From the sequence record MN013077.1: 64,000 nt of DNA; one strand, 5' to 3'. Positions 4,427 to 29,923 of the stretch are shown piece after piece. Position 1 is the stretch's first letter; the number at the start of each line of letters is the position of its first letter. The notes below the pieces were generated by a model. It did not search any database, had not been told where the DNA came from, and worked only from the letters and a program-made list of their open reading frames with translations. This DNA comes from Klebsiella phage vB_KaeM_KaOmega. The translations under genes and the position numbers were made by a program.

Positions 4427-4464
4427 CTACCTTATTGTTCACTAAACATGAACAGGAGAGCACC

Positions 4465-5028
4465 ATGAACAAAGTCTTATCCCCGGCAGAGCAGCTTGCC
4501 ATGATGATCAAGCTGGCAGCAACCCACCATATGAAGCAATTCGATAAGGGTGGTCGCCCTTACGTCCTGCACGTCCTGAAGGTGATGCATTACCTTAAAG
4601 ACAAGGATGATGACGAACTCAACTGTATCGCGGTTGGTCACGATCTGATTGAAGACACCCCGGTTCAACAGTGCGATCTGGAACGCTTAGGTATCTCAGA
4701 TCGTGTTATCGACGGGATCACTCGATTGACCAAAATTCCGTTCCAGTCACATGATGAATACCTGAAGGACATTCTGAAGAGCCATGACGCCTGCCGTGTT
4801 AAACTCGCAGACCTGCGCCACAACACAGATATCCGCCGTCTGAAAGGTTTGCGTCAAAAAGACTTGCAGAGAATCCAAAAGTACCATAAAATGCACATGC
4901 AGATTAAGGACATGATTGCATGGTACGAAGACAACCATTTGAGCATGTTCTCTTTCCCGGGTGATTACTTTGATGCCCGCAACGAGCAGGTAAAATCAAT
5001 CATGGAGAAAGAATACGATGCGAATTAA
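4465..5028 (+). CDS. HD-domain (p)ppGpp hydrolase, small alarmone hydrolase (Mesh1/SpoT-HD-like)
   Basis: ATG at 4465 with AGGAGAG SD (track ORF starts 4405). Motifs HHMKQFDKGGRPYVLHVLKV and IAVGHDLIEDTP...IDGITRLTK match the RelA/SpoT HD hydrolase signature (HD...HDxxED...GxTKL). Confidence 0.8.
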   Translation: MNKVLSPAEQLAMMIKLAATHHMKQFDKGGRPYVLHVLKVMHYLKDKDDDELNCIAVGHDLIEDTPVQQCDLERLGISDRVIDGITRLTKIPFQSHDEYLKDILKSHDACRVKLADLRHNTDIRRLKGLRQKDLQRIQKYHKMHMQIKDMIAWYEDNHLSMFSFPGDYFDARNEQVKSIMEKEYDAN

Positions 5029-5378: not shown

Positions 5379-5905
5379 AAAAGACCCTGAGCATTGAACC
5401 AGTTGTTTCTACGTACCTCGGTCGCCCCTATGGTATGGGTGACGATTCTGTACTTGACGATGGTGACTGGCTGGATCTGGAAGATGACAAGCAGTATACG
5501 ATCACACGCCTTGGGTGCCGGATCAACGGCAAAGAGCCGGAGGAAGTGTACTGTCTCTATTACTTCCTTCACGCCATGAAGCCGGGTTGGAAGGGTGATT
5601 ACCAAAAAGGTTGGACGTGGGATTCTTTCTTCACCTGTTCCTGTGGACACGGCGGCTGTGCCGGGTATCACGAGAACGTTCGTATCCACCGTAAGAAGGC
5701 CACAGTCCGGGTGATGGGTAAGGTGTCAGACGGATACAAAGACGGGGTTGTGGGGACCGGACAGGACGTTGTATACTTCGACAAGAAGCAATGGGACGGT
5801 GTACGGGAATATTATCTCGACCTGTTCCGCAATAACCCGGAAGGTATCTTCCAAGATAACGAAATGTTCTTCACCGGGCGATTTGGCCTGGCAACATGGG
5901 GTTGA
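5375..5905 (+). CDS. hypothetical protein
   Basis: 176-aa ORF; ATGA overlap with previous gene. Confidence 0.55.
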   Translation: MKKTLSIEPVVSTYLGRPYGMGDDSVLDDGDWLDLEDDKQYTITRLGCRINGKEPEEVYCLYYFLHAMKPGWKGDYQKGWTWDSFFTCSCGHGGCAGYHENVRIHRKKATVRVMGKVSDGYKDGVVGTGQDVVYFDKKQWDGVREYYLDLFRNNPEGIFQDNEMFFTGRFGLATWG

Positions 5906-27056: not shown

Positions 27057-27428
27057 ATGAACCTGACCAACTTCAACCGCTACTACATCCGCGACGAACA
27101 GGCAAACGCTTTTGGGTACGATCGTTCGTTCGAAATGCAACAGCACGTAGGCGGCGCAAAGTTACACGTTGAAACTGTTACCTTTGAAAACTATTTTATG
27201 GCGACCTTTGACAATGGTTTACAGATCTCCATTGAGTACAAAGGCGGCGTGATGACTCTCGCCACTGAGGATAAATTCCGCAAAAAAGATCTTTTGAATC
27301 ATCCAGGTTTTGCCAGCAACAAAGAATTATTGATTAAAATTTATATCCGCTGGGTAGTGGGCCGCATCGCAACAGAAGAGCAGATCGCCGCCCTGGTGGA
27401 TCTGGCTCTGAATCTGGATTTAAATTAA
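27057..27428 (+). CDS. cassette ORF, hypothetical protein
   Basis: 123 aa; SD AGAGGAGA. Confidence 0.55.
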   Translation: MNLTNFNRYYIRDEQANAFGYDRSFEMQQHVGGAKLHVETVTFENYFMATFDNGLQISIEYKGGVMTLATEDKFRKKDLLNHPGFASNKELLIKIYIRWVVGRIATEEQIAALVDLALNLDLN

Positions 27429-28169: not shown

Positions 28170-28370
28170 ATGACAACCGCCAACCGCCTGATCGATGTTC
28201 TGAATGATGCAAAGGCAAACCGTTTAGCCGTGGCAATCAAAGAAGAGGCAAACGGGCTGATCCTGGCAAGTGTTACCGATGGCTGTTACACTGAATCATT
28301 CCATGCTGATACACTGGAGTATCTCGCCCACAGATTAGAAATGATCGTTGACGATTGGCGGCTATTGTGA
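28170..28370 (+). CDS. cassette ORF, hypothetical protein
   Basis: 66 aa; last ORF of the plus-strand array. Confidence 0.5.
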   Translation: MTTANRLIDVLNDAKANRLAVAIKEEANGLILASVTDGCYTESFHADTLEYLAHRLEMIVDDWRLL

Positions 28371-28386
28371 TCCGACCAAACCAAAC

Positions 28387-28412
28387 AGGCCCGGCATAGT
28401 CCGGGCTTTTTA
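28387..28412 (+). terminator. rho-independent terminator
   Basis: GCCCGG-catagt-CCGGGC followed by TTTTT. Confidence 0.7.
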
Positions 28413-28762
28413 GTGCCTGCAATCCGGCCCGGTATTGGTCCGACTCCCCCAGCCTATAAGCCCTTATCATTTAACATTGTGGAAATCAACATCTAATTTT
28501 ATTCATAAAAACATGCATAATTGAATACAGGAGGCGCTAACCCACTAGCCAGGGTTGAGAGTAGCGGGCCGCATAGGGCCTTACAGCGCGTTTTAGCCCC
28601 TATTGACTTCTATCTGCAAACGTGTATCAGGCCACAACTGACTAAATCACCTTTTCTTTACATAACTTGACACTATTTATTCATTTATCTGCATAATGCG
28701 AGAATGATTATCATTTACAATCAATAACTTAACTTTTTATTGACTTCTGACAAAACACGGTT

Positions 28763-28785
28763 TTACGTTCCCACGGATCAAGGGA
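28763..28785 (+). repeat. direct repeat TTACGTTCCCACGG(A)TCAAGGGA, copy 1
   Basis: 14-nt exact core repeated at 28861; both copies preceded by ACGGTTT. Confidence 0.55.
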
Positions 28786-28802
28786 GGGCGCGCCGGAGGC
28801 GC

Positions 28803-28820
28803 GACCAATAGAAAACAGGT
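28803..28820. repeat. left arm of 18-bp perfect inverted repeat GACCAATAGAAAACAGGT
   Basis: Exact reverse complement at 28894-28911. The 73-nt interval contains hairpin CCGTTGC-tagctc-GCAACGG and direct-repeat copy 2. Flanked by GC hairpin GCGCGCC-gga-GGCGCGA. Confidence 0.6.
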
Positions 28821-28860
28821 AACGAACCCTCCCCCGTTGCTAGCTCGCAACGGTTTAGGC

Positions 28861-28883
28861 TTACGTTCCCACGGTCAAGGGAT
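28861..28883 (+). repeat. direct repeat TTACGTTCCCACGGTCAAGGGAT, copy 2
   Basis: See copy 1. Confidence 0.55.
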
Positions 28884-28893
28884 GACCGCTATC

Positions 28894-28911
28894 ACCTGTT
28901 TTCTATTGGTC
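28894..28911. repeat. right arm of 18-bp perfect inverted repeat ACCTGTTTTCTATTGGTC
   Basis: Perfect complement of 28803-28820. Confidence 0.6.
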
Positions 28912-28963
28912 ATTTGTGATTGAAAATCACGTAAAGTCAAGTTTTATTTTACAAATGAGAGTT

Positions 28964-29001
28964 ATTCTTATCTGCATAAAGATTGGTTTTATCTGCATAA
29001 A
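28964..29001 (+). repeat. iteron-like direct repeats TTATCTGCATAAA x2 (21-bp spacing), with further copies at 28688 and 28608
   Basis: CTTATCTGCATAAAGATTGGTTTTATCTGCATAAATACG; related TTTATCTGCATAATG at ~28688 and TTCTATCTGCAAACG at ~28608. The region is AT-rich. Confidence 0.45.
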
Positions 29002-29157
29002 TACGTAAACAGGCGGACCCGGTACGGGCCGGAGGGCCTGAGAGGAGAGGGCCTTTATTGCTCACAAAACAGCCGAAAGCGTAGCTTTTGCCTGGCAAAA
29101 TTCACTCTTCGTGTCAAGCGAAAAATAATTTTTTTTCTTTTTTCGTAAACGATAATG

Positions 29158-29241
29158 ATTCTCATCCGAGAACCATTCTCAAAGGGCGAATGCGAGTCAT
29201 TCTCATTGGCATTCCACAACGTGAGTGAGACTCATTCTCAT
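29158..29241 (+). promoter_or_regulatory. cluster of four ATTCTCA(T) half-sites with GAGAA/TGAGA partners (operator-like array)
   Basis: ATTCTCAT at 29158, 29175 (within palindrome GAGAA-CCA-TTCTC), 29199 and 29234 (within TGAGA-CTCAT-TCTCA). Same half-site as the 16016 palindrome. Confidence 0.5.
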
Positions 29242-29275
29242 CTAGGCCACGGCTGGCGGGCCTCTCCACGTGTTG

Positions 29276-29296
29276 GGAATGATTATCATTATCCCG
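29276..29296. promoter_or_regulatory. near-palindrome GGGAATGATTATCATTATCCC
   Basis: Inner ATGAT-T-ATCAT is perfect; resembles the site at 26700. Confidence 0.35.
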
Positions 29297-29899
29297 AGTG
29301 CGTATAAGGTGTATTATGTTAAATGGGGAAATGTTGGGGGAGGCACACCACAGCCCGGCTGTCAATAAGAGAAGTGTAAAGATGGGCAAGATGGTAGACA
29401 TTTTGTGACTTTGATCGCGTAAAGTTAGGGGCTACCGATCGGGATTCAAGATTGGGAGGGAGAGGCTAAGTAATTGATTATTAAGGATATTTGGGAAAAA
29501 TAACAGGTGCCCCTCCCCACCCCTGTTCGCCATGCCTGGCAGCTATATCCATACGCTGAGATATTTTTCTGGTTTCTGGGCAAGAAGGGCCACCCCTGAT
29601 CGCGTTCTAAAAATTTTGGCGGGAGGGTATTTTGACATAAAAAGAGGGTACACCCAACGGGAGCGCCTCTTCAGGCGTCCCTTGATATTTGGGCAATGTG
29701 GGAATACAGACGGGTACGTCTCTGTGGGAACAGGTATACCCGGCGGGAGAGGGCCTCCCGGACGGGGTATGGCGCTCGCAGAGTTATCAACAGGACAGAA
29801 CACACGTTCGCCTCTTCAGGCAGTGGGTTAGACTCAAGTGGGACTCTTTAGGCCCTGTCAGGTCTACCAGTGTGGGAAACAAAATCCCGGAGGGAAGAT

Positions 29900-29923
29900 A
29901 CAAAAAAGGCCCGCAAAGGGCCT
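29900..29923 (-). terminator. rho-independent terminator ending the leftward gene block
   Basis: Plus strand AAAAAA-GGCCC-gcaaa-GGGCC, so the minus-strand transcript ends GGCCC..GGGCC-UUUUUU just downstream of the stop of gene 29931..30260. Confidence 0.7.

Follow-up and report, generated by a model that had tools for sequence, protein, structure and literature searches.

An inverted-repeat element in the gene-free convergent gap of Certrevirus and other Vequintavirinae: a candidate replication origin

The rV5-like phages carry a gene-free stretch of 2-2.6 kb that has been unexplained since the first rV5 genome. The rV5 paper describes it as a 'non-coding' box without open reading frames (ORFs), 2,604 bp long between genes 163 and 164, and leaves the origin undefined; a 2025 report on Bas54 (= MaxBurger) recovered no transposon insertions in the ~2-kb gap between bas54_0134 and bas54_0135. 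Published accounts of the rV5/Bas54 gap call it non-coding or important, and we found no dissection of it in the literature. Here we analyse a stretch of 64,000 nucleotides from Klebsiella phage vB_KaeM_KaOmega (MN013077.1), hereafter the window, in which the interval 28.60-29.01 kb carries a perfect 18-bp inverted repeat with nested hairpins and accompanying repeats. Judged from the sequence and its relatives, this interval may be the core of a cis-acting DNA module, most likely an origin of replication or the centre of a module that controls replication, and we put the probability of this reading at about 0.45. The gene-free box itself was already known and reported to be important; no earlier description of the inverted-repeat element found throughout the subfamily, of the dif-like site or of the Fur-like array seems to exist in the searchable literature.

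The two arms, GACCAATAGAAAACAGGT and ACCTGTTTTCTATTGGTC, are separated by 73 nt (Table 1), and by our estimate ~1e-5 such perfect 18-mer repeats, with arms no more than a few hundred bp apart, are expected by chance in a 1-kb region. The segment between them forms the helices AACGAA/TTACGTT and CCT/AGG, an inner hairpin CCGTTGC-TAGCTC-GCAACGG (28833-28852) and a further hairpin CGGTCA-AGGGA-TGACCG (28872-28888), and the palindrome GTGAT-TGAAA-ATCAC lies beyond the right arm at 28916-28930. The core has 58% GC, compared with 26-27% in the flanks 28650-28749 and 28900-28999, 36-37% in 29050-29199 and 47-50% in the whole window. A direct repeat, ACGTTCCCACGG(A)TCAAGG, occurs at 28765 and 28863, the two copies lying 98 bp apart (2 in 64 kb versus 0.06 expected), and both are preceded by ACGGTTT at unequal distances (0 and 4 nt). 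Exact copies of TTATCTGCATAA are present at 28685, 28968 and 28989 and nowhere else in the 64-kb window; a fourth, partial copy, TATCTGCA, is found at 28610. The interval thus holds several copies of short repeats (TTATCTGCATAA three times, the direct repeat twice), to which the binding of an initiator is putative, and AT-rich DNA adjoins them. The initial annotation, which was made from the letters alone, had listed the 18-bp inverted repeat, the inner hairpin, the GC hairpin, the GTGAT palindrome, the AT-rich flanks and two copies of a 23-bp direct repeat. All are present, and these repeats are real and far beyond chance; its three iteron copies and their 21-bp spacing likewise hold, with coordinates that were 2-3 nt off.

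Promoter-like boxes accompany the repeats. The site at 28668-28698 is invariant in phiTE and in relatives from IMG/VR and metagenomes. Direct-repeat copy 1 begins at the would-be -10 position of the 28741 box (TACGTT, 18-nt spacing), and the same layout of A-rich tract, TTGTCA and first copy of the lineage's own repeat recurs in Seunavirus and Mydovirus. From the other side, the leftward element has its predicted transcription start at the right arm. Its spacer hairpin differs in sequence among relatives while the hairpin itself is kept, a hairpin-in-spacer build shared with the phage's own early promoters and with the CB7 consensus; SSBI34 has a canonical version of the element (TTGACT-16-TATAAA) and A5-4 a similar one. 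Iteron-like repeats, AT-rich flanks and inward promoter boxes are accessories of the origin type.

A megablast search with 28400-29300 returned Certrevirus genomes only, which places the window in a phiTE/CR3/CR8-like myophage of the Vequintavirinae and not among the kin of T5 that had been implied initially. The nearest relative is CR8 (92%), followed by CR3, CR9, Enterobacter and Pantoea phages of the F-series, Pectobacterium phage phiTE, CB7, P7_Pc and POP15; Salmonella phage SSBI34 is more distant. The segment ~28763-28911 is nearly invariant in 12 GenBank relatives and 3 contigs from IMG/VR or metagenomes. Against CR3 the gap gives a single uninterrupted alignment (87% over 1368 nt), against phiTE two long blocks (~80%), whereas the flanking early genes align to both only in patches; the element is the best-conserved block of its neighbourhood. 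At least one copy of TTATCTGCATAA is kept in all Certreviruses. In public collections the invariant 23-24-mer was recovered from only 4 viral and 2 metagenome contigs. The direct repeat also has seven exact matches, all in unrelated taxa and none in Enterobacterales, and a host counterpart was dismissed as chance.

Folding of the core is much more stable than that of shuffles, with z = -7.0 for DNA and z = -6.1 for RNA from either strand. In an alignment of 16 Certrevirus-type sequences, 97.8% of the cells pair, as opposed to 38-45% in slid controls; changes on both sides affect nine pairs (34 cells), and none of 500 shuffles reaches the covariation score. Helices 4 and 5 contain 7 pairs changed on both sides, and only 2 wobble cells stand against the 34 that are doubly compensated. 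The distal part of the long stem alternates between CAGG/CCTG, GGGG/CCCC (CR9 and a JACCDR contig) and GGG/CCC (phiTE, CB7); the inner hairpin occurs as CGTTGC/GCAACG, CGGCGC/GCGCCG, CTTTGC/GCAAAG and ATTTTGC/GCAAAAT, and the helix CCT/AGG is exchanged for CAC/GTG. The two direct-repeat copies are invariant in sequence even though their predicted structural contexts differ. Tolerated insertions of 19-36 nt are confined to the unpaired stretch directly before the right arm (34-36 nt in phiTE/CB7, 19 nt in another relative), and the insertion of phiTE (4441-4476 of the phiTE stretch compared) and CB7 carries internal ACCGCTTATTA repeats. In these two phages the gap is also enlarged by several hundred bp and contains an inserted, free-standing HNH endonuclease gene (phiTE_097/CB7_143; 5405-5905 of the phiTE stretch), and it therefore tolerates insertions at some points.

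The same architecture is found in other genera. A single perfect inverted repeat of 16-19 bp occupies the same gap in Certrevirus, Vequintavirus (rV5, Bas54), Seunavirus (GAP31, PVP-SE1), Mydovirus, Avunavirus and A5-4. The gaps of GAP31, PVP-SE1, VLCpiM5b (Mydovirus), Av-05 (Avunavirus) and A5-4, which were located via the dif-like anchor described below, are convergent, gene-poor and 1.7-2.3 kb long; two small hypothetical ORFs are annotated inside those of GAP31 and A5-4. The arms are related across genera, GACAC(A/T)ATAA(A/C)ACG..., and enclose 71-188 nt. Each genus has a GGCGCG box before the left arm and TAAC after it (TATAC in A5-4); the box GGCGCG..CG(G/T)AG..GCGAC is present in every genus but folds into a hairpin in Certrevirus and Vequintavirus alone. 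Over their 16-19 bp, all eleven arm variants pair without a mismatch, amounting to ~200 bp of Watson-Crick pairing. The slots filled in Certrevirus by two copies of ACGTTCCCACGG(A)TCAAGG hold CGTTCGCGTTATCGTGG in Seunavirus and Mydovirus (two direct, one inverted) and AAGGCAACTAT (four copies) and ATGCAAACGAATGGCATGG (two copies) in Vequintavirus. Such lineage-specific repeats in the same slots are the pattern expected of sites co-evolving with a DNA-binding protein. Taken together, the architecture is deeply conserved without sequence identity, and the eleven perfect arm variants, the scarcity of wobble pairs and the invariant, lineage-specific repeats argue for pairing or symmetry at the level of DNA.

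The box of rV5 is the syntenic 2.6-kb convergent gap and contains GACATAATATAAAAGCAG as a perfect 18-bp inverted repeat whose arms are 149 nt apart. On the other strand of rV5 the order is CGCGAC-GGA-GTCGCG, GACATAATATAAAAGCAG, TAACCATCACCCCC, and in CR8 it is GCGCC-GGA-GGCGCG, ACCAATAGAAAACAGG, TAACGGATCACCCCC; aligned in this way, the rV5 and Certrevirus elements are homologous, a relationship missed by BLAST. The gaps of rV5 and Bas54 resemble that of the window in their convergence, the GC hairpin with GGA loop, the perfect 18-bp arm, the string TAAC..ATCACCCCC, the dif-like site and the Fur-like boxes. They differ in a longer inter-arm segment (116-149 nt), and rV5, which has no BLAST-detectable similarity to the window, replaces TTATCTGCATAA and ACGTTCCCACGG by about ten GTAAACAGT iterons and AAGGCAACTAT repeats. 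The iterons of rV5, GTAAACAGT or ACTGTT(T/C)AC, lie between the element and the dif-like site (5480-5640 of the rV5 stretch compared), a slot that in Certrevirus holds two TTATCTGCATAA copies. Related to these iterons are CGTAAACAGG and CGTAAACGAT, conserved in Certrevirus at 29004-29013 and 29144-29153 of the window. In one Vequintavirus contig (at 3257-3409 of the stretch compared) the inner quasi-palindrome (AGATC-ATAGTTGCCTT/AAGGCAACTATAGATCT) is made perfect over 17 bp by a 1-nt insertion, and rV5 has a 33-nt insertion at a hairpin tip; the 17-bp correction and the tip insertion bear the signature of template-switch correction of palindromes. In Bas54 the homologous element lies between bas54_0134 and bas54_0135, the gap that took no transposon insertions, and a unique origin would explain their absence.

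On this basis we propose the following model. A phage-encoded initiator or regulator would bind the invariant repeats as double-stranded DNA, namely ACGTTCCCACGG(A)TCAAGG (two copies) and TTATCTGCATAA (three to four copies), and the 18-bp inverted repeat with its nested hairpins could be extruded to form a cruciform or a three-way hairpin. Negative supercoiling or an R-loop primer may come from host RNA polymerase that enters from the inward -35 boxes on both sides; the flanks of 26-27% GC would then melt, and the phage primase-helicase of the T7 gp4 type could be loaded. With the adjoining Fur-like palindromes and the dif-like XerCD site, the whole gap would resemble the 'origin plus multimer-resolution site' of plasmids. 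What the sequences establish is the anatomy, its conservation, the compensatory changes and the synteny with a gap that is essential in a relative; protein binding, extrusion of the hairpin, activity of the promoters and the start of replication are predictions of the model. The initial annotation had likewise preferred a DNA-level cis site and named an origin first. This choice fits better than any rival; its supporting argument, that rightward and leftward transcription blocks diverge here, is incorrect, as the blocks converge: + strand genes end at 28370 and - strand genes run inward.

Several observations weigh against an origin. A convergence zone with a dif-like site resembles a bacterial terminus, and no DnaA boxes (TTWTNCACA) occur in the gap of the window, with single, non-conserved matches in rV5, Av-05 and A5-4; such boxes are not obligatory for phage origins. 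No initiator or DNA-binding gene is recognizable beside the gap among the ten flanking proteins. The inward-facing boxes have poor -10 hexamers, and none of them passes a consensus promoter scan. GC skew was rejected as an origin marker, for it tracks gene orientation and is uninformative: the shifts of GC and AT skew at the region are accounted for by the change in gene orientation, and the rV5 paper likewise ties skew to orientation. Moreover, the perfect arms could be kept by template-switch correction and not by selection. The intolerance of 2 kb to insertions exceeds the need of a compact origin and fits essential RNAs equally well, and this evidence comes from a different genus (Bas54, a Vequintavirus). 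Sites for IHF conserved in the gaps compared were also not found. The ten small flanking proteins match only PHROGs of unknown function, or nothing, and were therefore rejected as candidate initiators; the annotated 'replication initiation protein' of rV5, gp075, lies 40 kb from the gap.

An unlikely alternative is that the core encodes a structured noncoding RNA, or a sense/antisense pair transcribed from the converging boxes, that acts in trans or as antisense control, with parallels in RNA I/RNA II of ColE1 and in phage immunity RNAs; the hairpins would then be helices of RNA. The strong folding on both strands and the clear covariation are compatible with an RNA, as are the -35 boxes that point inward from both sides; the leftward box shows the spacer hairpin typical of the phage and takes a canonical form in SSBI34. 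A T-rich stretch follows the right arm in several Certreviruses (GGTC-TTTT/ATTT), and an essential RNA would also account for the insertion-free gap of Bas54. Against this, there are almost no wobble pairs, none of the 11 arm variants has a mismatch, conservation of the direct repeats is at the level of sequence rather than structure, and the -10 hexamers are weak. Across genera, neither strand shows a consistent terminator after the element, and no Rfam family reaches its gathering threshold in the whole window: matches in 28350-29500 are sub-threshold noise at E <= 10, and the sole one within 28600-29010 is RsmY (11.1 bits versus a gathering threshold of 57, E = 6.6). The GGA loops that a CsrA sponge would need are lost in CR3, F1M1E and SSBI34 and absent in other genera. 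A CsrA/RsmA sponge, suggested by the loop CACGGAUCAA and the GGA loops, was accordingly discarded, the loop reading GTA in those three phages and GGA being unconserved between genera. A mimic of type I-E CRISPR repeats, resembling the locus loosely by eye, had no match to a CRISPR-DR family, and a second small RNA at 28518-28602 folds no better than shuffles (z = -0.5).

The surroundings of the element bear on the next alternative. The small + strand genes stop at 28370 according to the ORF listing and the annotation of relatives, and in phiTE and P7_Pc a terminator is annotated at the place equivalent to the 28389-28412 hairpin. The small - strand genes start past ~29930 and run toward the region, with a - strand terminator at 29923-29907. 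Between these converging blocks lies a gap of 1.1-1.5 kb without genes (~28.41-29.9 kb). The directions of the early promoters agree with both blocks (+ strand at 17.2-27.4 kb, - strand at 40-56 kb).

Right of the element, the gap contains a site with the 11-6-11 core of dif that is identical to Escherichia coli dif at 24 of 28 positions, with 2 arm mismatches and a perfect XerD arm. In every lineage checked, a dif-like core with 0-3 arm mismatches is located 390-680 bp right of the element in the same orientation, always within the convergent gap; these lineages are rV5, Bas54, GAP31, PVP-SE1, Av-05, VLCpiM5b, A5-4, SSBI34 and all Certreviruses checked. The initial annotation had mentioned a recombination site as an alternative, and such a site does exist, 390 bp further right and beyond the interval to which it was assigned. 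The FtsK-orienting polar sequences (KOPS) nearby are too few to judge polarity. The gap's only BLAST matches to plasmids are to this core, over 26-40 nt, in Acinetobacter plasmids, and plasmid relatives of the gap were dismissed for want of any other match; plasmids of Acinetobacter are known for pdif sites. No mention of Xer was found in the searchable literature on these phages. Palindromes matching the 19-bp Fur box GATAATGATAATCATTATC with 2-3 mismatches, of which 0 are expected in 64 kb, constitute putative Fur sites; the dif and Fur consensus strings were confirmed in the literature. The Fur-like array, ~150 bp long, abuts the XerC arm, the position at which cer and psi carry accessory sequences of ~180 bp, and is unlike ArgR, ArcA or PepA regions. 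phiTE has a copy matching the Fur box at 18 of 19 positions, GATAATGAGAATCATTATC (4729-4747 of the phiTE stretch compared), and similar boxes occur in the gaps of Seunavirus, Mydovirus, Avunavirus and Vequintavirus, on the XerD side in rV5; A5-4 has none. A small hairpin motif, CCTCTTCAGGC, is present in two exact copies right of the dif-like site (29666-29676 and 29811-29821) and recurs in the gaps of rV5 (CTCTTCAGG, four copies) and PVP-SE1 (CACTTCAGGC, three copies).

The gap might instead be a terminus or boundary, in which the dif-like site resolves dimers where forks meet and the inverted repeat with its hairpins serves as a bidirectional terminator, insulator or fork barrier. In its favour, every lineage has converging gene blocks and a dif-like site that keeps one orientation to the element, terminator-like hairpins stand at both edges of the gap, and the authors of the rV5 paper expected a bidirectional terminator between genes 163 and 164. 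However, a stem that encloses 71-188 nt and lacks a U-tract is no intrinsic terminator, and ordinary terminators already close both blocks (28389-28412 and 29907-29923). A terminator or dimer-resolution site should moreover be dispensable in the laboratory, whereas the Bas54 gap took no insertions, and the invariant direct repeats and lineage-specific repeats would be left unexplained. We regard a terminus as improbable.

Still less probable is an operator region without any role in replication, in which the repeats, the arms and TTATCTGCATAA bind a phage regulator and the Fur-like boxes bind host Fur to control the converging promoters. Consistent with operators are the overlap, in Certrevirus, Seunavirus and Mydovirus, of repeat copy 1 with the place where the -10 of the inward + strand box would be, the Fur-like box just downstream of the 28668 promoter-like site, and the lineage-specific repeat motifs. 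Yet no genes lie downstream of these promoters within the gap, operators have no need of compensatory changes in inner hairpins, and the insertion intolerance of the whole Bas54 gap is hard to square with regulating nothing.

A packaging (pac) site or other signal for a DNA end would also be essential in cis, and several GenBank records open inside the gap. Among them, that of Cronobacter phage PBES 02 (KT353109.1) has its first position exactly at the right arm and its last within the left arm (28819/28895 of the window), so that the 75-nt inter-arm segment is missing; the Vequintavirus records of bov10K2, EdH4, Gotham, ECP2303 and Pr121LW are likewise opened inside the gap. These record breaks are probably assembly breaks at hairpins or iterons. 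Record starts were rejected as physical ends, as the break points vary among records and sit on repeats or hairpins, as in assembly artefacts, and PhageTerm indicates circular permutation. phiTE is terminally redundant and circularly permuted, the Vequintavirus bov10K2 was scored 'circular permutated' by PhageTerm without a pac call, and the terminase genes are distant (58-61 kb in rV5, with the gap at 104-106 kb). Headful pac sites usually lie in or near the small terminase gene. The packaging signal that the initial annotation had offered as an alternative is thus very improbable in view of the circular permutation in phiTE and a Vequintavirus, and nothing was found here in support of its injection-stop signal, a concept from T5. 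Least probable of all is an invertible switch in which the 18-bp arms are recombination sites that flip the 73-bp segment: perfect inverted repeats around a short segment are the signature of an inverton and the PBES 02 record lacks exactly the inter-arm segment, but this segment has one orientation in 16 of 16 Certrevirus sequences, the alignments of 118 of 120 Vequintavirus records run through both arms unbroken and on the same strand, an invertible segment of only 73 bp would be very short, and no invertase is annotated in the rV5 stretches examined.

The features of the window are collected in Table 1. The early promoters are of the sigma-70 type with an unusual build, a GC-rich hairpin within the spacer between -35 and -10 (TTGACA-[GGGGCC..GGCCCC]-ATAAT); their form, TTGACA, spacer GC hairpin and (C/G)ATAAT, was compared with the published Certrevirus consensus (CB7). 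Upstream of the gap, a 123-amino-acid protein (27057-27428) is a homologue of T4 gp30.7, with counterparts in ~1000 T4-like genomes at 30-37% identity. No tRNA or transfer-messenger RNA was found in the window. The pseudo-ToxI antitoxin mimic of phiTE was considered and set aside: it is defined by ToxI-like repeats of 36-37 nt at the phiTE escape locus (106,714-106,772), whereas the region discussed here corresponds to phiTE 48.9-50.4 kb.

Table 1. Positions of the features of the gap and of related elements in the 64,000-nucleotide window.
Feature	Position	Strand	Remarks
Hairpin-in-spacer early promoters	17231, 19030, 19305, 23015, 25078, 27432	+
Hairpin-in-spacer early promoters	55745, 47745, 40180, 2123	-
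GC hairpin GCCCGG-CATAGT-CCGGGC, then TTTTT	28389-28412	+	terminator-like end of rightward block; same hairpin also listed on - strand
TTGACT, -35-like box, then partial repeat TATCTGCA (28610-28617)	28603-28608	+	conserved in relatives; consensus scan calls no promoter
TTGACA (28668-28673), 19-nt spacer, CATAAT (28693-28698)	28668-28698	+	promoter-like, non-canonical spacing; overlaps TTATCTGCATAA copy 1 (28685-28696)
Fur-box-like palindrome GAGAATGATTATCATTTAC	28700-28718		3 mismatches to GATAATGATAATCATTATC
TTGACT, -35-like box pointing into the core	28741-28746	+	weak as sigma-70 promoter
Direct-repeat copy 1, TTACGTTCCCACGGATCAAGGGA	28763-28785	+	can form hairpin TCCC-ACGGATCAA-GGGA; invariant in 16 relatives
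GGCGCG box/GC hairpin GCGCGCC-GGA-GGCGCGA	28788-28804	+	abuts left arm
Left arm of 18-bp inverted repeat	28803-28820		conserved TAAC next; distal positions co-vary with right arm
Inter-arm segment	28821-28893		helices, hairpins, direct-repeat copy 2
Direct-repeat copy 2	28861-28882		inside inter-arm segment
Right arm of 18-bp inverted repeat	28894-28911
Leftward promoter-like element	28912-28941	-	A-rich upstream tract, CTTGACTTT (-35 at 28940-28935), 17-nt spacer with hairpin GTGATTTTCAATCAC, weak -10 ACAAAT (28917-28912)
TTATCTGCATAA copies 2 and 3	28968-28979, 28989-29000	+	iteron-like, 21 bp apart
Fur-box-like palindrome array (consensus GAgAATGAnnnTCATTcTC)	29148-29293		best GGGAATGATTATCATTATC, 29275-29293, 2 mismatches, - strand
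dif/cer-like XerCD site AGTGCGTATAA-GGTGTA-TTATGTTAAAT	29297-29324	+	0 expected by chance

An anatomy common to the genera checked now emerges for the gene-free stretch: the perfect inverted-repeat element with its lineage repeats comes first and the dif-like site last, and in most genera iterons or Fur-like palindromes lie between them. The origin of phages widely used in therapy and biocontrol thereby becomes directly testable. A lytic myovirus would not be expected to have a conserved dimer-resolution site of host type together with a cluster of Fur boxes; the Vequintavirinae are regarded as strictly lytic headful myoviruses. The sites suggest XerCD/FtsK and Fur as host factors, which could affect infection, engineering and safety assessment, and the dif-like site raises the question of integration. 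In a bolder and improbable extension, the Vequintavirinae would carry a chromosome- or plasmid-like maintenance hub, consisting of a cruciform origin with lineage-specific repeats, a Fur-box array wired to host Fur and, physically coupled to the origin, a functional XerCD/dif site. The dimer-resolution machinery of the host chromosome would then be required for productive infection, or for a hidden state in which the phage is carried or integrated.

Among known systems, palindromic viral origins such as oriS/oriL of herpes simplex virus, the simian virus 40 origin and the polyomavirus core have inverted initiator sites around a centre and the potential to form hairpins or cruciforms, a putative resemblance to the present element. 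As in these origins, nested inverted repeats flank an AT-rich centre in Seunavirus. They are, however, eukaryotic and use superfamily 3 (SF3) or UL9 helicases as initiators, and the arms of Certrevirus have their AT-rich DNA on the outside. Single-strand origins and single-stranded DNA promoters (ssoA/ssoU, Frpo of the F plasmid, the ssi sites of G4 and phiX) may share with the present element folded, imperfect hairpins of 110-220 nt whose function would depend on pairing within one DNA strand, and in several genera the arms hold -10-like strings, TATAA(A/C) or CATAAT. Those systems act on one particular strand of DNA that is replicating by rolling circle or being transferred, whereas we know of no single-stranded DNA stage for these phages.

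The iteron-containing theta origins (lambda ori, P1 oriR, pSC101, R6K, P4 ori/crr) have short repeated motifs at a spacing of about two turns, adjacent AT-rich DNA and a -10 box overlapping a repeat, all of which recur here. Unlike them, the gap has no DnaA boxes, no adjacent initiator gene and, in Certrevirus, few iteron copies, and its dominant feature, a long perfect inverted repeat, is missing from those origins. ColE1-type plasmids with cer, psi or dif differ in that the host of the present site is a lytic, headful-packaging myovirus of 150 kb and in that the palindromes are Fur-like and not of the ArgR/ArcA type; the accessory DNA of cer has no sequence similarity to the gap, and the Fur-like boxes of rV5 are on the XerD side. 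Nevertheless, the window shares with these plasmids the 11-6-11 core, the perfect XerD arm and ~150 bp of repeated palindromes on the XerC side. Just as ColE1 combines an origin primed by a structured transcript with cer, structured and possibly transcribed DNA lies here a few hundred bp from a Xer site.

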